A stretch of 58,954 nucleotides of DNA from Dehalococcoidia bacterium (GTDB taxonomy: Bacteria > Chloroflexota > Dehalococcoidia > SZUA-161). Position numbers and translations under genes: made by a program. Positions 7,533 through 41,399 of this stretch are shown here, one piece after another. The first letter of the stretch is position 1; each line of letters starts with the position of its first letter. Location: the NCBI GenBank assembly GCA_034409195.1, contig DAOUMT010000079.1, positions 1 through 58,954 of the forward strand, in the 5' to 3' direction. Under the pieces are notes generated by a model. It saw only the letters and a program-made list of their open reading frames with translations. It was not told the origin of the DNA and searched no databases.

Positions 7533-7664
7533 ACTGTCCCCCCGACTTTACTTAAGCCCCCTAAAATTAACAAAATGTAAACTGATTTACTTTTTTTGTG
7601 TAATCCCGTTAATAACCCTACCTGAAAAGCTTCGCTATGATAAAACTCGGAGGGGGTGAGTCCA

Positions 7665-13790: not shown

Positions 13791-14171
13791 TTAAGTTTTA
13801 TCTTCTTGCTTCGCCTTCAGGGGGCAATGTTTAGTGCAAAATTCTTCGTCTAGGCTTTGCTCTTCTATCGTTAAAGCTTGCAGAACCTCCTCGCGCCAGC
13901 GCTCCAGAGTATCGTGGTTAATAAAGTAGTGAATGTGGTAGCCGCGCCTCAGCCCTTTGACCAGTCCGGCAGATTTAAGCACCCGTATATGCTGGGAAAC
14001 GGCAGACTGGGTAACTCCCAGAAAACCTGCCAGCGCGTTCACACACAGTGCATCAGGGTCGCGCTGTTGACAGAGCAATCTCACCAGTCTCAGACGGGTA
14101 GGGTCGGCGAGTGCGCTGAAAACCGCAGCTTGCTCTTCAATATTGCCCTGTCTATTTTCTTTCATATTCAT
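13791..14171 (-). CDS. ArsR/SmtB-family transcriptional regulator
   Basis: 126-aa ORF. ALADPTRLRLVRLLCQQ...LAGFLGVTQSAVSQHIRVLKSAGLV is the ArsR wHTH. No SD precedes the ATG. Confidence 0.8.
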   Translation of the reverse strand: MNMKENRQGNIEEQAAVFSALADPTRLRLVRLLCQQRDPDALCVNALAGFLGVTQSAVSQHIRVLKSAGLVKGLRRGYHIHYFINHDTLERWREEVLQALTIEEQSLDEEFCTKHCPLKAKQEDKT

Positions 14172-14393
14172 CAGCTTATAAGCATATACTAATATATTTT
14201 AATTATCTGTTCAAGACCGCTTTTTGTCAAGTGCTCTTATCAGAAAATTAGGTAGAAATACGTATCTTCAACGGACAATAAGATACTAGCCCTGCTCGGA
14301 TAAGATATGCTACAAATAGAGCTGGTGGAATATAGGCGTTCTCTCTGGGTAGCCAGAGTGTGGTGGTACCTGAACAGAAAGGAGTCTGAAAAC

Positions 14394-15056
14394 ATGAAAA
14401 TCAACCTGAAAGACAAAGCCTATGAAGTGGACGAGTTGGGTTTCTTAACAAATCATGACCATTGGGACGAAAATTTCGCATCGGAAATGGCATCTAGATT
14501 GAAAATACCCGAAGGGCTCTCCAAGAGGCACTGGGATGTAATTTATTTCATTAGAAAATATTTTTTCAAAAACGGCGTATGCCCTAGAGTTTTTGAAACA
14601 TGCAAAGCAAATAGATTAGCCATCCGAGACTTAGAGAAGCTCTTTCCCAGCGGCTACCAGCGAGGTGCCTGCCTGCTGGCAGGAATAAGTTACAAAGACC
14701 GTCTGGTGAATTACTACGGGGAACCCGTTCCTATACGTGTTGCTGAAAAAGAAGTGGCTAAACCAAAAGGTAAAGTTTACAGAATAGACGTATATGGATT
14801 TTTGGTGGATCCCGGTGAATGGGACGAAGACTACGCTGTAAATAAAGCATTGGAGATGAAGATTCCGGGAGGATTAACCAAAAAACACTGGGAAATAATA
14901 CAATATCTTCGCGATAGCTGGCAAAAGAATAGCCTTGTACCGACCGTATACGAGTGCTGTAAATCAAACAATATCGAGTCAGAGGACCTGGGAAAGCTAT
15001 TTCCAGACGGCTATCAAAGGGGAGCGATAAAAATCGCAGGATTAAGAATAATATAA
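14394..15056 (+). CDS. Tandem (fused) DsrC/TusE-like protein with two domains, both lacking the C-terminal Cys arm
   Basis: ORF 14307-15056. The ATG at 14394 follows AAAGGAG. Residues 1-100 and 126-220 each align with the DsrC encoded at 25009-25329 (E/DxxGFL, HW.VI.F.R, LFP.GYQRGA..AG). Domain 1 keeps GAC; domain 2 has GAI. Neither has the PKPTGCV tail. Confidence 0.75.
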   Translation: MKINLKDKAYEVDELGFLTNHDHWDENFASEMASRLKIPEGLSKRHWDVIYFIRKYFFKNGVCPRVFETCKANRLAIRDLEKLFPSGYQRGACLLAGISYKDRLVNYYGEPVPIRVAEKEVAKPKGKVYRIDVYGFLVDPGEWDEDYAVNKALEMKIPGGLTKKHWEIIQYLRDSWQKNSLVPTVYECCKSNNIESEDLGKLFPDGYQRGAIKIAGLRII

Positions 15057-15058
15057 GC

Positions 15059-15178
15059 CCTGCTCATTATACTCAGGATGATTTACCTACATCCTGAACC
15101 GCTTTGAACTCATGCCTAGAATTATTAGATTTTTCTAGGCATTATTGCCTATGCCATAATAAGCCGATTAGCCGATGT
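15059..15178 (+). promoter_or_regulatory. Copy A of a ~120-nt conserved upstream element shared with the sat operon; contains a candidate promoter and palindromic operator
   Basis: About 96 of 121 columns are identical, by hand alignment, to the reverse complement of 38649-38769. Inside: -35-like TTGAAC (15104-15109), a 16-nt spacer and -10-like TAGATT (15126-15131). These are bracketed by the inverted repeat TGCCTAGAA (15113-15121) / TTCTAGGCA (15133-15141). Confidence 0.6.
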
Positions 15179-15242
15179 CTGCTACCTAGCCTTAGAGTAT
15201 CATTTTCCTTAGGTTGTCGAATCACTATGTTATTGTTAAACC

Positions 15243-15776
15243 ATGGCTCTGAAAACGCTTTTAACGCAGAATAAAAACTCCATTTTGCAAAGATGGTTCA
15301 ATCTGATAGCAGATACGTATCCCACAGGCGTCTCAGGCTTTCTCAAGGATAACGACAGATTCACCAATCCGGTAGGCCATACAATCTCCCAGGAAATAAA
15401 CTCTCTTTATGATGAACTACTGCAGGACCGGGTAGACTCCGATAAAGCCGCAGCATCTCTGGACAATATTATTAAAATCAGAGCAGTTCAAGACTTCTCC
15501 CCTCAGAAAGCTATCTCCTTTGTTTTCCTGTTGAAAAAAGCTATAACAGATGAACTGGGGAGCGAGCTAGAGAAAAAACAGTCTTTCGGGGAATGGCTGA
15601 AGTTTGAGCCCGGGATAGACAAACTGGCATCTATAGCGTTCGACAAATACATGGAAAGCCGCGAGAAAATCTGCGAACTCCGGGTAAATGAGGTGAGGGC
15701 TGACAGAGAGATAGCTTTCAGGCTGCTCAGGTTGATGGGAGGTAAAAACGGGAAGCACGGCGAGGCTGTGGAATGA
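15243..15776 (+). CDS. RsbRD_N-like (globin-type sensor N-terminal) domain protein, translationally coupled to dsrM
   Basis: 177-aa ORF. ILQRWFNLIADTYPTGVSGFLKDNDRFTNPVGHTISQEINSLYDELL matches my memory of the RsbRD N-terminal domain. ATGA overlap with dsrM. No SD precedes its ATG. Confidence 0.5.
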   Translation: MALKTLLTQNKNSILQRWFNLIADTYPTGVSGFLKDNDRFTNPVGHTISQEINSLYDELLQDRVDSDKAAASLDNIIKIRAVQDFSPQKAISFVFLLKKAITDELGSELEKKQSFGEWLKFEPGIDKLASIAFDKYMESREKICELRVNEVRADREIAFRLLRLMGGKNGKHGEAVE

Positions 15777-20865: not shown

Positions 20866-22029
20866 ATGGATGATAAAACACCCATGGTAGACGAGCTCGA
20901 AAAAGGACCGTGGCCCAGCTATGTGAAAGAACTAAAGCGGGCTGCAAAGAAGCATGACTCGGTAAAGGACCTGATAAAGGTCCAGGAACGGTCTTTCCAG
21001 AGGAAGATGACCCAATGGAAGCACGGCGGCATCGTTGGCGTCAAGGGCTACGGCGGTGGTGTCATCGGGAGATACATTCAGAACCCCGAGGACTTCCCCA
21101 ACGTGGCGGCATTCCATACCCTGCGTGTCAACCACCCGTCGGGATGGTTTTATGACACGAAGGCGCTGAGAACTATCTGTGATATCTGGGACAAGCACGG
21201 CAGCGGGATGACTAATTTCCACGGCTCGACCGGCGATATAATCCTCCTGGGGTGCACCTCTGAGGAGCTCCAGCCAACCTTTGATGAGTTGAGCGAGCAC
21301 GGGTTTGACCTGGGAGGCTCAGGATCCGACCTGAGGTCACCCACAGCCTGTGTCGGCCCGGGACGCTGTGAATGGGCGTGCTTCGATACCCTGGACTTAA
21401 TCTACGACATAACCAAGTCCTATCAAATGGAGCTTCATCGGCCCCCCTTCCCCTATAAAACCAAGATCAAGGCCTCTGGCTGCCCCAACGACTGCGTGGC
21501 TGCCATAGCCAGGTCTGATTTCAGCTTAATCGGCACCTGGAGAGATAATTTGAGGATCGACCAAGACGCGGTCAAAAAGTACGCAGATAGTGGATTCGAC
21601 ATCCAGCGTCTGGTTGTCGCCAAGTGCCCCACCGAGGCAATAGAGCTGGTGAAGGGCAAACTCGAACTGACACATCCCGAGGACTGCGTCAGATGCATGC
21701 ACTGCATAAACCTGATGCCAAAGGCAATCAGGCCCGGTGTTGACACCGGCGCAACCGTGCTGGTCGGTGCCAAAGCGCCCATAATCCACGGTGCCGTCCT
21801 CTCCACAGTACTCATTCCTTTTATCAAGGTACAACCTCCCTACACTGAGATAAAGCAGCTTTGGGAGAAAATCATGGAATGGTGGGATGAAAACGGCAAG
21901 ACCAGGGAGAGGTTAGCCGAGCTTATTGACAGGGTGGGAATGCCTGCATTTCTGAAGGCTATAGAGGTAAAGCCTTCTCCCCAGATGGTATACACACCCA
22001 GAGCAAATCCGTACTTCTTCTGGGGATAG
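20866..22029 (+). CDS. dsrA: Dissimilatory sulfite reductase alpha subunit
   Basis: 387 aa. ELEKGPWPSYVKELK, sirohaem-FeS motif CVGPGRCEWAC...GCPNDC and the ferredoxin insert CPTEAI...CVRCMHC. Confidence 0.92.
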   Translation: MDDKTPMVDELEKGPWPSYVKELKRAAKKHDSVKDLIKVQERSFQRKMTQWKHGGIVGVKGYGGGVIGRYIQNPEDFPNVAAFHTLRVNHPSGWFYDTKALRTICDIWDKHGSGMTNFHGSTGDIILLGCTSEELQPTFDELSEHGFDLGGSGSDLRSPTACVGPGRCEWACFDTLDLIYDITKSYQMELHRPPFPYKTKIKASGCPNDCVAAIARSDFSLIGTWRDNLRIDQDAVKKYADSGFDIQRLVVAKCPTEAIELVKGKLELTHPEDCVRCMHCINLMPKAIRPGVDTGATVLVGAKAPIIHGAVLSTVLIPFIKVQPPYTEIKQLWEKIMEWWDENGKTRERLAELIDRVGMPAFLKAIEVKPSPQMVYTPRANPYFFWG

Positions 22030-22112
22030 CCTGAAGTGTTGGATGGCAGAATGAAGCAGGACAAGTCTGTTTTAGATTAATAAACCAGAGAATTTAGAGG
22101 AGGAAGATATTA

Positions 22113-23195
22113 ATGTGCCCGACTGATATTGGCCCCCCCGATTTTAAGACGATGCTCCCCGATGTGATTAAGAAGAACTATGGTAAATGGAAGTATCACG
22201 AGATACTAAAGCCCGGAGTTATGAAGCATGTCGCCGAGTCCGGAGACGAGCTTTATACGGTAAGGGCCGGGTCACCCAAGCTGGTGAGCACAGACTTTAT
22301 TCGCGATCTCTGTAATGTAGCTGACAAGTACTGTGACGGACATCTCAGGTTCACCAGCCGGTATAACCCGGAGTTTCTGACCCCCAAAAAGGAGAATGTC
22401 GAACCTATAATCAAAGAGCTGAATAAGCTTGGATTGCCTGTGGGCGGCACTGGAAGTGGCCCGGGGGCCTGCCTGTCTAATGTTATTCATACCCAGGGGT
22501 GGATACATTGCCACGGCGCAGCCTCGGATGCCTCGGGGATTGTCAAAGCGATGATGGATGAGCTTTACGACTATTTCGTTGGCAAGAAGACGCTTCCTGC
22601 CAAAATGAGGCTTTCACTTGCTTGCTGCCTTAACATGTGTGGAGCCATTCACGCCAGCGACGTGGCCGTAGTGGGAATGCATACAAGGGTGCCCAATATA
22701 GACCATGAGAAGATGCGTGCCATGTGCGAGATACCTACGGTTGCGGCAGCCTGCCCCACAAAGGCTATCCGGCGCCATCCTGACCCCAATATAAAGAGCG
22801 TGGTCGTCGATGAGTCGAAGTGCATGTACTGCGGCAACTGCTTTACAGTCTGCCCTGCGATGCCCCTGGCAAATGCTGAGGGAGACGGGGTCGCTATTTT
22901 TGTGGGCGGCAAGGTATCCAATGCTCGCAAGCCGCCTATGTTGTCCCGCGTAGTTGTGCCCTACCTGCCCAATAATCCGCCCCGCTGGCCGGAGGTGGTG
23001 AATACTGTCAAAAACATCATTGAAGTATACGCAGAAAATGCCCGGTGGGGTGAGCGTATGGGCGAGTGGATACAGAGAGTAGGTTGGGAGAGATTCTTTA
23101 AGCTTACGGACCTTCCTTTCTCTGTGCAGCTTATTGACGACTTCGAGTTAGCCCGAGACACGTTCAGAAGCACAACCCAGTTCAAATGGACCTAG
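22113..23195 (+). CDS. dsrB: Dissimilatory sulfite reductase beta subunit
   Basis: 360 aa. [48 protein letters not shown] closely matches the canonical DsrB N-terminus. ACCLNMCG and [12 protein letters not shown] are present. Confidence 0.92.
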
Positions 23196-37289: not shown

Positions 37290-38492
37290 CTACTCCTTCG
37301 CTCTATCGCTCTGGTAATAATCCATCAGTATCTTGGCCACTTCGGGGCGGCTGAATTCGGGTGGAGGAGCTTCGCCCTTGGAAAGCATTTCACGGACCTT
37401 AGTGCCGGACAGCATCAAGTAGTCCTCCTGAGTATGAGGGCAATTGCGAACCATAACGATACCCTGGCATTTGTTGCACCACACAGTGTTGTCGCCTCGG
37501 TAGATGCCAATCTTGAGGGCATTCTTGGGAATCTTATCGAATATGGTCTGGGCATCGAAAGGTCCGTAATAACTGCCAACTCCAGCGTGGTCACGGCCGG
37601 TAATCAGAGTTGTTGCTCCCATATTCTGACGGAAGACGGCATGCAGCAAAGCCTCACGCGGGCCGGCATACAGCATGTCATATCCATAGCCAGTGACCTC
37701 AACTGAGTTAGGTGGGAAATAACGTTCCACCATCTTTCTAATTGCCATATCGCGCACATCGGCAGGAATGTCGCCCTTCTTCAATTTGCCCAGCAGCATA
37801 TGAATCACCGCGCCGTCAGCGCCTTCTTCTTTCATCGCCATTTTGACAAGCTCTTCGTGCGCCCGGTGCATGGGGTTACGGGTCTGGAACGCCACCACCT
37901 TCTTCCAGCCATGTTTCCCGATCATTTCTCGTATTTGTGCCGCTGTTCGGAAGGTCTCAGGAAATTCGGCGGCAAAATAGGAGTAGTTCAATACCCGAAT
38001 GGGACCGGAGATGAAGGTTCTTCCTGCGTTCATCCAGTTGGCGACACCGGGGTGTTTCTCATCGAGAGTACCGAATATCTTCTCTGCCATAAATTTCATC
38101 TGGTCTTCGGTTGCTTCCTCGATAGCCTGCACATCCTGGATAGCGATAACCGGGTTACCGGCAACGTTGCAGTCTTTGAGCGCAATGCGCTTAGCGCCCT
38201 TGATTGAACTGGCATCTTTGACCACGTTCACAATGGGAACAGGCCAGAAGAGGCCATCCTTGGCCTCCATTTTCTCAGCTACCTTCAGAGCCTCCTGGAG
38301 CCCCATGTATCCCTTCAATGGATTGAAATATCCGGCTCCCAGCATCACGGCGTTTGCCGCCGCCTGCGAACATATAACTATAGATGGTAGAGTTTGTGCT
38401 TCTTTCAAAAGTTTTGCTCTCTCTGCATCATCCGCCACGTAGAGTGGATTTAGAGTGTCTGAGCCATGGGGTTTTATAAGTTTATCTGCCAT
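37290..38492 (-). CDS. sat: Sulfate adenylyltransferase (ATP sulfurylase)
   Basis: 400 aa. LIKPHGSDTLNPLYV, VAFQTRNPMHRAHEEL and GRDHAGVG are ATP-sulfurylase signatures. Confidence 0.9.
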   Translation of the reverse strand: MADKLIKPHGSDTLNPLYVADDAERAKLLKEAQTLPSIVICSQAAANAVMLGAGYFNPLKGYMGLQEALKVAEKMEAKDGLFWPVPIVNVVKDASSIKGAKRIALKDCNVAGNPVIAIQDVQAIEEATEDQMKFMAEKIFGTLDEKHPGVANWMNAGRTFISGPIRVLNYSYFAAEFPETFRTAAQIREMIGKHGWKKVVAFQTRNPMHRAHEELVKMAMKEEGADGAVIHMLLGKLKKGDIPADVRDMAIRKMVERYFPPNSVEVTGYGYDMLYAGPREALLHAVFRQNMGATTLITGRDHAGVGSYYGPFDAQTIFDKIPKNALKIGIYRGDNTVWCNKCQGIVMVRNCPHTQEDYLMLSGTKVREMLSKGEAPPPEFSRPEVAKILMDYYQSDRAKE

Positions 38493-38648
38493 ACTATCTC
38501 CTTATTTCTTTAAATTCTGGCATTTACTGGGATTTAAGGCAATTACTCTCAGGTTAACCCTCTTACTACGCATGAGAGTATTCGCGGATTATCATCCCCC
38601 TTTCTGCCCAACTTTGTAATAAATGTTAGCATTTACATTTATAAGTAT

Positions 38649-38769
38649 ACATCGACTAATCGGCTTATTCTCATTTAAGCAATAATGCTTAGAAAAATAT
38701 AAGAATTTCTAGGCATATGTTCGAAGTTGTTTCGGATGTAGGCTAATCGCCTTGAGCATAATGAGCAGG
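38649..38769 (-). promoter_or_regulatory. Copy B of the ~120-nt conserved upstream element (upstream of sat); candidate promoter plus palindromic operator
   Basis: Its reverse complement aligns with 15059-15178 at about 80% identity. Minus-strand TCGAAC (38719-38724), a 17-nt spacer and TATATT (38696-38701). Inverted repeat TGCCTAGAA (38707-38715) / TTCTAAGCA (38686-38694), with one mismatch. It ends 157 nt upstream of the sat ATG. Confidence 0.6.
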
Positions 38770-38840
38770 CTGACCTGAGAGGCAGTCAGCGATTGCCCCT
38801 TAGGTTGAACCTTTGGGCTATCTGAGGTACAATAATACGC

Positions 38841-39542
38841 ATGGATAAGAGTTTAGAAAAAATCAGAATCATCATTGCCGATGACCATGCAGTGGTGCGT
38901 GAAGGCACCCGGGAGCTGCTGCAAAAGGAACCAGACCTGGAGGTTGTGGGCGAAGCCGGTGATGGTGAAGAAGCAGTGAGGCTCGTCAAAGAGCTTATTC
39001 CGGATGTTGCCATATTGGACATCGCCATGCCCGGCCTCAACGGTATTGAAGCAACCAAGCAGATCAAAGCCATATTACCGAGCACGGCAGTGCTTATATT
39101 GACCGCTTACGAGTACGACCAGTACGTCTTTGCCCTTCTCGAGGCAGGAGCTGCCGGCTATCTGCTAAAGGATGTCCCCAGCCAAAAGCTGGTTGAGGCC
39201 GTTCGTGCAGTGCACGCCGGTGAATCGGCACTTCACCCGGTTATCGCGCGCAAGGCACTCAACCACTTTGTGCATAGTTCTAATAAGGCAGGTGAACTGC
39301 AAACCCAACCCCTGACTGATAGGGAAGCGGAGGTGCTCCGGCTAGCTGCCAAGGGGCAAAGCAACAGGCAAATAGCTAATAAGCTGGGGCTGAGCGTACG
39401 CACCGTTCAGGCTCATCTGAGCAATGTCTTCAACAAGCTCAAGGTTGGTTCGCGCACCGAGGCGGTGATCTCCGCATTAAAGACCGGACTGCTTACCTTG
39501 CAGGATATAACTGATTCCTTGGACGAGTCAGAAGCTCCATGA
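38841..39542 (+). CDS. NarL/LuxR-family response regulator
   Basis: 233 aa. REC domain (IRIIIADDHAVVREG...DVAILDIAMPGLNG) plus LuxR HTH (LTDREAEVLRLAAKGQSNRQIANKLGLSVRTVQAHLSNVFNKL). Divergent from sat. Confidence 0.9.
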   Translation: MDKSLEKIRIIIADDHAVVREGTRELLQKEPDLEVVGEAGDGEEAVRLVKELIPDVAILDIAMPGLNGIEATKQIKAILPSTAVLILTAYEYDQYVFALLEAGAAGYLLKDVPSQKLVEAVRAVHAGESALHPVIARKALNHFVHSSNKAGELQTQPLTDREAEVLRLAAKGQSNRQIANKLGLSVRTVQAHLSNVFNKLKVGSRTEAVISALKTGLLTLQDITDSLDESEAP

Positions 39543-39722: not shown

Positions 39723-41399
39723 ATGGATAAGAGGAAGGACGACGGGCCTCAGAAAGCGCCATCAAGGCTAATAGTTAACTGGGATGAATTGCAGCAGCAC
39801 GTTTCTGTTTTCAAGGAAAACGAGCAATCACTGGCGGCTTTGAACGCCATCTCCGACCTTATTAATCAGCCTCTGGAAATCCGACAGGTTCTAACGCTTG
39901 TGGCTGATAAGACCATGGAAGTAATGAGTGTGGATGCTATTCTTATATTCCTCATAGATGAAGAAACGCAGGACCTTCGCCTGGAAGTAAGCAAGGGAGT
40001 CTCGGAGGAATTCGTGGCTGGCGTCAGGAAAATGAAAGTGGGGGAAGGCTTTAATGGAACAGTAGCGCAAACAGGGAAACCCCTATTTGTGGATGATGCC
40101 AGTACCGATCCGCTGCTAAGCAGACGGGTGGTAGTTGTCGAGGGAATAAGGTCACAGCTTATTGTTCCTTTGCGGTCCAGAGGCAAAATGGTGGGAACCA
40201 TCTGTGTTGCCAGGCGCAAGCCGGGGAAATTCCAGATGGCTGAAGTGGCGTTGCTGAGCAGTATTGGAAACGCCCTCGGAGCTGGCCTCGAGAATGCTAT
40301 ACTTTACCAGGAGATGGAACAGGCGCTAACGTTATTGCGACAGTCCGAGGAAAAATATCGAGACCTTTTCGAGAACGCCTATGATGCTATCTGGCTGCAT
40401 GATTTGGATGGCAATCTGCTCGCTGCGAATAAGGCATGCGAAAAGCTCACCGGTTATACGTCAGATGAATTACTTAATGTACATATCTGCCAACTGATTC
40501 CCGAGTGCAGCCGGTCGAGTATCGAGCAGACAGAGCGTAAATTAATTCTGGACCAGCATGTTGAACATCGTTGTGAAGGAGAACTGATTAAGAAAGGTGG
40601 AACGAAGGCTCTCGTCCAGATTACAACAAGCTTGATAGCTCACGATGGCGAAATAGTCGGTTTCCAGCATTGCGCCCGAGATATAACGGAAGAGAGACAA
40701 CTGCAGCAAAACCTTCGCTATTACCTGCAGCAGGTCACCCGGGCTCAGGAGGAAGAACGTAAGCGAATCGCTAGGGAATTGCATGATGAAACTCTGCAAA
40801 ATCTAATTGCTATCTCGCGTCAGTTGGAGAAGATCACTTCCAGCGATGCGTTATGGGAGGAGAGCGTTGAAGCCGTACGCAGCTTCAAAAAACAAATCGA
40901 AGTTGCAGTGCAGGAGATACGCCGTTTCAGCCACGACCTGCGCCCGTCGGTGCTGGACGACCTCGGACTGCTGCCTGCGCTGGAACTGCTGGCTGACGAT
41001 CTGAACAAACAAGGAATTACTACTAGTTTCAAGGTAACCGGCGAATCAAGGCGGCTTGCGCCTGAGGAAGAGGTGATGCTATTTCGTATTGCACAGGAGG
41101 CAGTGAGGAACATCTGGCGCCATTCCCATGCTTCGTCCGCAGAACTTGTCATAGAGTTTAGCGATGCTTTGGTCAAACTGAATATCAAAGACGACGGCAG
41201 CGGTTTTAGATTACCGAAAAGGGTAGGAGATCTGGCTGGCCTGGGAAAGCTGGGACTGGCAGGAATGTACGAGCGAGCCAGATTGCTGGGCGGAACTCTA
41301 ACGCTGACATCCAACGAAGGCAAGGGAACAACAGTAACTGTCGAAGTGCCCGTTTTGGCCTTCAAGGAAAGGAAAACTATCAGCTTTGGGGATAAATGA
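39723..41399 (+). CDS. Sensor histidine kinase (GAF-PAS-HisKA_3-HATPase)
   Basis: 558 aa. GAF-like region, PAS (YRDLFENAYDAIWLHD), H-box RIARELHDETLQNL, and HATPase with G-box DDGSGF...GLAGMYERARLLGG. Confidence 0.88.
   Translation: MDKRKDDGPQKAPSRLIVNWDELQQHVSVFKENEQSLAALNAISDLINQPLEIRQVLTLVADKTMEVMSVDAILIFLIDEETQDLRLEVSKGVSEEFVAGVRKMKVGEGFNGTVAQTGKPLFVDDASTDPLLSRRVVVVEGIRSQLIVPLRSRGKMVGTICVARRKPGKFQMAEVALLSSIGNALGAGLENAILYQEMEQALTLLRQSEEKYRDLFENAYDAIWLHDLDGNLLAANKACEKLTGYTSDELLNVHICQLIPECSRSSIEQTERKLILDQHVEHRCEGELIKKGGTKALVQITTSLIAHDGEIVGFQHCARDITEERQLQQNLRYYLQQVTRAQEEERKRIARELHDETLQNLIAISRQLEKITSSDALWEESVEAVRSFKKQIEVAVQEIRRFSHDLRPSVLDDLGLLPALELLADDLNKQGITTSFKVTGESRRLAPEEEVMLFRIAQEAVRNIWRHSHASSAELVIEFSDALVKLNIKDDGSGFRLPKRVGDLAGLGKLGLAGMYERARLLGGTLTLTSNEGKGTTVTVEVPVLAFKERKTISFGDK

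Follow-up and report, generated by a model that had tools for sequence, protein, structure and literature searches.

Two operons of sulfate reduction are each preceded by a copy of one inverted repeat (inverted repeat 1, IR1) in the 58,954-nucleotide (nt) contig DAOUMT010000079.1 of a Dehalococcoidia bacterium (assembly GCA_034409195.1), which as a whole is referred to here as the window, and the question raised by this locus is what reads the repeat, on DNA or on RNA, and with what effect on the operons behind it. Copy A stands before dsrT and the dsrMKJOP genes, and copy B before sat, next to a divergent pair of genes for a NarL/FixJ-type response regulator and a histidine kinase. An earlier note on this DNA had read IR1 as a repressor operator enclosing a -35/-10 pair, with the neighbouring two-component system as candidate regulator. 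The best explanation that emerged from the comparative analysis is a different one, and it is considered reasonably probable: IR1 would belong to an array of half-sites that is bound by the sat-linked NarL/FixJ-type regulator or a close paralogue, the array would have been carried before several operons by a cassette, giving a regulon, and its layout would be that of an activator site.

IR1 was recovered as the earlier note had described it, perfect in copy A and with one mismatch in copy B, which in terms of half-sites consists of an outer TGCCTA(GAA), 18 nt and the half-site TAAGCA (all coordinates are collected in Table 1). Copy A is the sole match of its pattern in the window, and no match arose in 100 dinucleotide-preserving shuffles. 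The palindrome is conserved in relatives, which leaves the operator call unrefuted on this point. Both copies form the centre of a cassette of ~150 nt, which is ~80% identical between A and B, and the right arm of IR1 is at the same time the left half of a 16-base-pair (bp) palindrome, TAGGCA-TTAT-TGCYTA (IR2, hereafter the box). This is the most conserved part of the cassette, and its centre, GCATTATTGC, is invariant in all of the 28 distinct copies compared.

The box associates the cassette with a particular family of regulators. Relatives of the window's regulator were fetched at 80 loci (57-96% identical, almost all from metagenome-assembled genomes of Dehalococcoidia or Chloroflexota), of which 78 were usable, and a box was counted when at least 11 of the 12 positions of TARGYA-N4-TRCYTA matched within 200 nt upstream of the regulator gene. 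It was present at 43 of the 78 loci, against 0.44 expected from shuffles of the same regions, a count that overstates independence, as the 80 family loci are mutually related; no box was found in 80 coding control windows of equal length. The family consensus is TAGGCATTTATGCCTA, and the boxes stand a median of 87 nt before the start codon. Where the recognition helix reads RTVQAHL, as it does in the window's regulator, a box is present in 35 of 52 loci, as against 7 of 27 loci without this helix (Fisher p = 7e-4, uncorrected for phylogeny). Perfect boxes number 4-6 per genome in six congeneric genomes versus 0-1 for a mirrored control pattern, an excess of about 10-fold, and several of those that lie outside cassettes adjoin paralogues of the regulator. 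The perfect boxes of the host genome (G000, whose contigs bear C numbers; L numbers denote fetched loci, and G001, G002, G004 and G005 are congeners) belong to three cassette copies (A, B and C), with a further one by a paralogous regulator gene on C40. Three identical boxes (TAGGCAGAGTTGCCTA) were also observed exactly 690 nt apart at G005:C1:263678-265073, in a congener that is not sulfate-reducing; these probably reflect some larger unit repeated in tandem rather than an operator.

Around the box, additional half-sites recur at fixed distances. A perfect reverse half-site lies 17-18 nt upstream of it in 12 of 42 family loci, and a perfect forward half-site 18 nt downstream in 8 of 42, where ~0.04 would be expected at any one offset, and the sequence between the sites is not conserved among family promoters. 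The cassette displays the same half-site spacing as the family, with TGCCTA and TAGGCA separated by 17 nt in copy A and by 18 nt in most copies, and in 21/28 copies the cassette has a half-site of 5/6 or better at the 18-nt gap. Because this spacing matches that of dozens of unrelated promoters, IR1 may be understood as the outer half-site together with the near half of the box of a shared architecture, and the operator would be better described as a 16-bp box with flanking half-sites than as one 9-N11-9 palindrome. Within copy B, the half-site at 38739-38744 followed by TTGAGC resembles the 'half-site then -35' layout of the family, and could in this way point to the regulator gene.

Exactly four copies of the cassette were detected by BLAST and nhmmer in the whole 2.5-Mb assembly, all of them sense-oriented before an operon. 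Apart from A and B, these are copy C on contig C185, before a small atpI-like open reading frame (ORF) and the ATP synthase genes, and copy D on contig C77:5472-5883 (L004/L018), before a TauE/SafE-type permease. Copies B and C have no co-directional upstream gene, and the cassette of copy A starts 2 nt past the stop codon of the gene upstream. Searched with a sequence-only covariance model, 3/5 congeneric genomes (G001, G002, G004) harbor the cassette, each before dsrT, sat and atp, and the two congeners without it are also without dissimilatory-type sat; in the other 56 of the 61 relatives searched it was not found, save for one weak match, and G013, G017 and G022 possess dissimilatory-type sat, yet lack the cassette. 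One pattern scan of metagenome contigs added 18 further loci. Some of them are near-identical to the host genus, and this clade is called g1-type or g1-like, as opposed to a divergent sister clade, in which the cassette precedes atp, sat, dsrT and dsrA, and to a third clade described below. Regarding copy C, the ATP synthase alpha gene at C185:9832-11340 appears split into two ORFs on the same strand (149 and 306 amino acids), possibly by a frameshift or an assembly error.

The manner in which the cassette multiplied can be read from its flanks. Copy D is preceded by a decayed 3' fragment (...SNNIDSENLGKLFPDGYRRRAIRIPGVRI) of the double-DsrC gene, the gene that precedes copy A, and therefore its source would have been the copy A locus, with adjoining coding DNA carried along. 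Behind the cassette of the g1-type atp copies (L039, L043, L050) a remnant of dsrT is left, comprising its first ~30 codons, and in the divergent-clade atp copy L055 (1256-1444) 63 codons of the regulator gene stand before the cassette. The cassette copies evidently arose through segmental duplication, and the gene remnants record which copy was the donor. The co-duplicated flanks have decayed, while the cassette is still 80% identical among paralogues and is conserved across clades.

The regulator encoded beside copy B harbors the Pfam domains Response_reg (E = 6.6e-29) and GerE (E = 6.7e-22), by which it is a NarL/FixJ-type protein with a LuxR-type helix-turn-helix. Its full-length structure matches are VraR/LiaR, NarL, DevR and DesR, the closest being VraR/LiaR, NarL and DevR. 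None of the NCBIfam equivalogs reaches its cut-off with this protein: NarL (NF007935) gives 161.3 bits against a cut-off of 250, and MadR, the best-scoring named regulator, 179 against 300. The LuxR/NarL regulator and GAF-PAS kinase that the earlier note had recognised beside copy B were both confirmed by Pfam, in divergent orientation to sat, which lies with aprB and aprA on the minus strand. A hydrophobic N-terminal segment was not seen in the first ~50 residues of the kinase on sequence inspection. The pair is divergent from sat in three clades, the g1-like, the divergent and the third one. In the third clade (L058-L061; regulator 75-77% identical) the order is aprBA-sat, box, regulator-kinase, box, dsrA, and similarity to the cassette is only faint, IR1 being still recognisable as TGCTTAGAAGC-N6-GCTTTCTAGGTC; the link of the regulator to sulfate reduction is apparently independent of the cassette. 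This synteny with sat in three clades, together with the box at the family loci, supports the adjacent NarL-type system as a candidate regulator, as had been proposed. Box-bearing family members are also found in Dehalococcoidia that do not reduce sulfate (L066, L069, L085, L093, L109, L130, L134), where the neighbours look, by N-terminal sequence only, like formate-dehydrogenase, Hdr-like, hydrogenase and NuoE/F-like genes. These members pair with kinases that have a hydrophobic, apparently membrane-spanning N-terminus, and the members of sulfate reducers with a soluble GAF-PAS kinase.

Table 1. Coordinates in the window of the repeat, its cassette, the candidate promoter and operator sites, and neighbouring genes.
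Feature	Position	Strand	Evidence or remark
IR1 copy A, perfect 9-N11-9: TGCCTAGAA (15113-15121), 11 nt, TTCTAGGCA (15133-15141)	15113..15141	+	
IR1 copy B: TGCCTAGAA (38715-38707), 12 nt, TTCTAAGCA (38694-38686), one mismatch	38686..38715	-	
Box (IR2) copy A, TAGGCA-TTAT-TGCCTA	15136..15151	.	
Box (IR2) copy B, TAAGCA-TTAT-TGCTTA, core operator candidate	38676..38691	.	12/12 to TARGYA-N4-TRCYTA; 6-bp overlap with IR1
Cassette copy A, before dsrT-dsrMKJOP	15057..15215	+	nhmmer, covariance model
Cassette copy B, before sat-aprBA-qmo	38616..38773	-	nhmmer, covariance model
Hexamers of the earlier note, copy A: TTGAAC (15104-15109), 16-nt spacer, TAGATT (15126-15131)	15104..15131	+	8/12, not called by scanner
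Hexamers of the earlier note, copy B: TCGAAC as -35 (38724-38719), 17-nt spacer, TATATT as -10 (38701-38696)	38696..38724	-	8/12, not called by scanner
Favoured -10 of copy A, TATCAT	15198..15203	+	start would lie near 15210, 33 nt before the dsrT ATG at 15243
Favoured -10 of copy B, TAACAT preceded by TGC (extended -10)	38623..38628	-	start would lie near 38616; 5' untranslated region of sat ~124 nt
Promoter-like site of the regulator gene, TTGAAC-17-TACAAT	38805..38833	+	scanner call; ends 7 nt before ATG; same arrangement in G002
Half-site TAGGCT on + (AGCCTA in sat sense), then TTGAGC	38739..38744	.	read from sequence
Possible further half-site TACCTA, block 1 of copy A	15084..15089	.	read from sequence
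11/12 box TAGGTAGAAATACGTA, divergent intergenic region between ArsR-type and double-DsrC genes	14249..14264	.	genome-wide scan; mostly chance at this score, a lead only
Direct repeats, block 1	15064-15082, 38748-38766		
Direct repeats, core	15159-15177, 38650-38668		
AT-rich inverted repeat in the sat leader	38619-38642		present
ArsR/SmtB-type gene, upstream of copy A	13791-14171		Pfam
Armless double-DsrC gene, upstream of copy A	14307-15056		Pfam
dsrAB, directly after the ORFs that follow dsrK	20866-23195		
sat (ATP sulfurylase), head of sat-aprBA-qmo	37290..38492	-	Pfam ATP-sulfurylase + PUA_2
NarL/FixJ-family response regulator, recognition helix ...LSVRTVQAHLSNVFNKL...	38841..39542	+	Pfam REC + GerE HTH
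Histidine kinase GAF-PAS-HisKA_3-HATPase	39723..41399	+	Pfam

Among the neighbours of the cassette, dsrT (with its RsbRD_N domain), dsrM and dsrK were identified downstream of copy A by Pfam, and the ORFs after dsrK have the sizes expected for dsrJ, dsrO and dsrP. A strong Shine-Dalgarno sequence, AAGGAG, precedes sat, and dsrT is without an obvious one. The AT-rich inverted repeat noted earlier in the sat leader is present, and past the cassette, at 38500-38600, parts of this leader are conserved between G000 and G002, including a stem around TACTCTCATGCGTAGTAAGAGGGT. The regulator mRNA would be leaderless or nearly so, given the position of the promoter-like site before its gene.

The likely sign of regulation is read here from the position of the promoter. 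The hexamers of the earlier note are located as claimed, and a position-weight scan was run over all cassette copies at aligned positions. The -10 inside the repeat has a mean score of 4.1 (minimum -7.4), while two other positions reach higher means: nAGAAT, just 5' of AAGCCGATT, with 7.1 (minimum 0.3), and a TAnnnT element ~55 nt downstream of the box, with 7.0 (minimum 3.0). TAnnnT occurs at one aligned position in 28/28 copies, usually with a G at -14, and copy D reads TGTATGAT there. It resembles GGGTGTATGAT, the -10 of the family's own promoters, in which the array lies upstream of TTGAGn-N17-(TG)TATGAT. Identity between paralogues falls from 63-91% to 45-59% just after TAnnnT (random = 52%), and therefore the shared block would end at the presumed start site. 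It is because of this complete conservation, the resemblance to the family -10 and the end of paralogue identity that the TAnnnT position is favoured, and the core promoter lies most likely at the 3' edge of the cassette. With this promoter, the centre of the 16-bp box would fall at -66.5 or -67.5, and that of the outer half-site near -95; the promoter's -35 is a poor one, and a weak half-site (TAGCCG/TGGTCG) stands beside it. NarL activates from 7-2-7 sites at -44.5, -67.5 and -77.5 (PMC7419079). The arrangement in the cassette points to activation rather than occlusion.

It had been argued instead that a sigma-70 promoter (TTGAAC/TCGAAC, 16-17 nt, TAGATT/TATATT) lies within the repeat, so that a repressor bound to the arms would block RNA polymerase. 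Its hexamers are correctly spaced in all g1-type copies, TAnAnT is kept in 11/13, and it is the top-scoring candidate in several g1 copies (10.5-12.0 in A_G000, B_G000, B_G001 and D). Nevertheless, this proposal is improbable, given that each pair agrees with the consensus at just 8/12 positions and was called by the promoter scanner in neither copy, that the critical G of the '-35' varies (TTGAAC, TCGAAC, TCAAAC, TCCAAT, TCTAAC), that the loop is GC-rich and devoid of TAnnnT in the divergent clade (AAGCTCGGAGGGCTT) and in clade 3 (AAGCCTAAAAGCTT), that the aligned scores are those given above, and that the family's own promoters place the same array upstream of the core promoter. What is conserved in every copy is the -10-like element further downstream, and since the promoter inside the repeat is not borne out, the occluding geometry deduced from it is not supported either. 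IR1 could also be read as a hairpin in RNA, within a long 5' leader common to the copies, with a promoter in or before block 1 of the cassette and an effect through attenuation, stability or protein binding; this reading is quite improbable as well. It would account for the conservation of 150 nt and more, beyond the needs of a core promoter, and the divergent-clade dsrA copy L051 (~2590-2660) does contain a perfect TTGACA-N18-TATAAT upstream of the whole array, its -10 aligned with block 1 (CATTATGCT), which is possibly a second, upstream promoter that reads through the array. Moreover, the sense strand folds slightly better (mean -11.2 vs -10.4 kcal/mol, in 20/29 copies), there are several G-U pairs, and the inner stem differs between clades, AAAT/ATTT being replaced by AAGC/GCTT. 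On the other hand, the nine arm pairs are paired in 88.8% of cases vs 89.3% in shuffles, with no pair changed on both sides; RNAalifold on 28 copies gives neither a hairpin nor a long-range helix and keeps only the 6-bp stem TAGGCA/TGCYTA; the four loci have no Rfam match at E <= 1; and in B_G000, B_G004 and the sat copies of the divergent clade it is the antisense strand that folds better. The arms therefore appear to be conserved as sequence and not as pairing, since covariation, an Rfam match and a consensus hairpin are all absent and fold energies are inconsistent. In addition, no conserved promoter precedes the cassette of copy A, which begins so close to the upstream stop codon, and the same half-site geometry, with unrelated, unconserved spacers, recurs upstream of core promoters at dozens of loci. 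The preference of the earlier note for a DNA-level role is upheld by these data. A long-range helix between block 1 and the core, suggested by RNAalifold on four copies, was gone with 28.

The array could also be a DNA operator for another protein, such as the ArsR/SmtB-type or double-DsrC protein, a NarL-type paralogue of the regulator, or a second factor with specificity for the symmetric spacer GAAGC...GCTTTC. The genes of the first two lie immediately upstream of copy A, and a fragment of the DsrC gene travelled with copy D. The 18-nt spacer within IR1 is itself symmetric (GAAAT...ATTTTTC or GAAGC...GCTTTC), a property seen only in the cassettes of sulfate reducers. A paralogous NarL-type regulator on C40 (C40:3186-4124, L140; 55% identical) has near-identical boxes: two 11/12 boxes lie 130-152 nt upstream of it, one of the C40 boxes reads CAGGCATTATTGCCTA, almost the box of the cassette, and a perfect box is situated ~60 nt past its stop codon, before an ORF of 128 amino acids; this regulator is possibly a cross-talk partner or an alternative binder of the cassette. 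Against these points, the comparative signal that connects the box to the NarL-type family is strong and that for the other proteins is nil, and the synteny with sat over three clades holds for the regulator-kinase pair, so that a binder from outside this pair is rather unlikely. The view that the repeat has no function and is just a trait of duplicated or mobile DNA, either like a miniature inverted-repeat transposable element (MITE) or as a recent segmental duplicate, would be in keeping with the real segmental duplication and the remnants at copy D (DsrC 3'), at the g1-type atp copies (dsrT 5') and at L055 (regulator 5'). It is nonetheless extremely unlikely: the genome contains just four copies, all sense-oriented before operons, the co-duplicated flanks decayed while the cassette was kept across clades, and the box exceeds its mirrored control ~10-fold in six genomes.

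Several narrower candidates were discarded. A MITE or mobile repeat is at odds with four copies in a single orientation, and no convincing terminal repeats were seen on inspection. A terminator of the upstream DsrC-like gene was not called at either region, where the stem is followed by TATTGCC and not by a T run, and a sigma-54 promoter in GGCATTATTGC would have, on inspection, a GG-to-GC spacing of 9 rather than 12. The statement of the earlier note that nothing here resembles a Rex operator holds: no such box (TTGTGAA-N4-TTCACAA-like) is present at <=3 mismatches in the four cassette regions, and matches elsewhere in the window are no more frequent than chance would give. On the strand opposite to the atp operon, whose atpD ends at 7551, a Rex-type gene (Pfam Put_DNA-bind_N, 71 bits) was observed at C185:6471-6617 (L137), ~900 nt past the operon's 3' end.

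The attribution of the array to the sat-linked regulator has to be weighed against other observations too, besides the relatedness of the family loci and the upstream promoter of L051. G000 encodes at least 8 paralogous regulators at >=50% identity, so the binder could be one of them. The nAGAAT element, with TTTCTA as its -35, scores as well as TAnnnT, and would leave the box in the spacer, in repressor geometry. In the divergent clade, the outer half-site has been lost from the sat copies, the very ones that neighbour the regulator gene, and their box has TACGCA. Finally, the half-site model leaves unexplained the direct repeats GCTCA-N4-GCTCA and WAGCCGAT x2, highly conserved as they are. 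In the cassette these direct repeats (GCTCA-N4-GCTCA and two (A/T)AGCCGAT with an 8-bp period) are strongly conserved, and together with the symmetric spacer of IR1 they suggest further binding partners.

The proposed model is as follows. IR1 would represent two of at least 3-4 half-sites (consensus TARGYA) in a DNA operator array, and the NarL/FixJ-type response regulator encoded beside sat, or a close paralogue, would bind it. The core of the array, TAGGCA-TTAT-TGCYTA, has a 7-2-7-like size that would fit one GerE-domain dimer, the left arm of IR1 would serve as an auxiliary half-site 17-18 bp away, and weaker sites would lie on the other side. The core promoter would pair a poor -35 with the conserved TAnnnT, which is often preceded by a G at -14, with the box near -67 and the auxiliary half-site near -95, as in an activator layout. 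Segmental duplication would have spread the cassette before dsrT-MKJOP(-dsrAB), sat-aprBA-qmo, the ATP synthase operon and the TauE-type permease, and before dsrAB in the sister clade. As the same array-bearing cassette precedes each of these operons, a single input would act on all of them, namely the soluble GAF-PAS histidine kinase; its signal might, as a guess, be the redox or energy state.

The nearest precedent in geometry is given by the NarL/NarP operators of E. coli, in which a pair of inverted elements extending over 16 bp (7-2-7) offers room for a dimer and single elements are in some cases added (PMC7419079). The window's regulator likewise combines REC and GerE domains (NarL structure 1a04, E = 4e-37), and its cassette contains a 16-bp inverted pair that would fit one dimer, with extra single elements nearby and the form TAGGCA(T)-TA-(T)TGCCTA, an agreement that concerns geometry only; the -67.5 position from which NarL activates is close to the -67 deduced for the cassette. 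The sensors differ, being a soluble GAF-PAS kinase in Dehalococcoidia and the membrane sensors NarX/NarQ in E. coli. The sequences recognised differ as well, for the heptamer consensus of NarL is TACYYMT and the half-site of the cassette is TAGGCAT (TARGYA). To our knowledge, outer half-sites at a fixed gap of 17-18 bp have not been described for NarL. In Mycobacterium, DevR(DosR) with DevS/DosT resembles the present pair in joining a NarL-family regulator (3c3w, E = 2e-36) to a cytoplasmic, GAF-containing HisKA_3 kinase. The boxes at which DosR acts are palindromic, and a promoter often has several of them; DosR regulates itself positively and governs a respiration/redox regulon. Unlike that system, the kinase here is GAF-PAS and not GAF-GAF, the box is unrelated, and the targets are sulfate respiration and ATP synthase. 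Desulfovibrio Rex, which controls sat and energy genes, would be a functional analogue, as one regulator that co-ordinates sulfate activation and reduction with energy-conservation operons, but it belongs to a different protein family with a different signal, and the cassettes have no Rex-like box. CIRCE, the HrcA site, coincides in part with the promoter or start site and has a further role in mRNA; like IR1, it is a 9-bp inverted repeat with a spacer of ~9-12 nt before several operons of one regulon, whereas the repeat studied here, the loop of which is not conserved, would be a by-product of the array of half-sites. Promoter propagation and 'putative mobile promoters' offer another parallel, in that the same non-coding upstream block is reused before unrelated operons, and in the present case gene remnants demonstrate the duplication. 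The block copied here differs in that it carries an identifiable candidate operator of a specific two-component system, and therefore its copying would recruit operons into a regulon. A literature search aimed at the box and at a site for this regulator family found no paper describing either.

Sulfate-reducing Dehalococcoidia are uncultured and widespread in sediments, and we know of no described control of respiration in them. If the model is correct, it supplies a concrete, testable regulator-operator pair for these organisms, with sat-aprBA-qmo, dsrT-MKJOP-dsrAB, ATP synthase and the TauE-type permease as candidate regulon. It would also illustrate clearly how a regulon can grow when an operator-promoter cassette is duplicated. 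More broadly, and more tentatively, the uncharacterised NarL-type family with its four-part operator (half-site, N17-18, 16-bp box, N18, half-site) might be a general switch of respiratory and energy operons across Dehalococcoidia, from which the sulfate reducers built a whole regulon by copying the cassette. If the main model is correct, targets of this regulator family could be predicted from the box in further Dehalococcoidia, among them organohalide-respiring relatives. The system described here may thus be regarded as a NarL-type two-component regulon in an uncultured lineage and a testable candidate for the master switch of sulfate respiration, in which the entire pathway (sat-apr-qmo, dsrTMKJOP, dsrAB, atp and the permease) would answer to one cytoplasmic GAF-PAS sensor.

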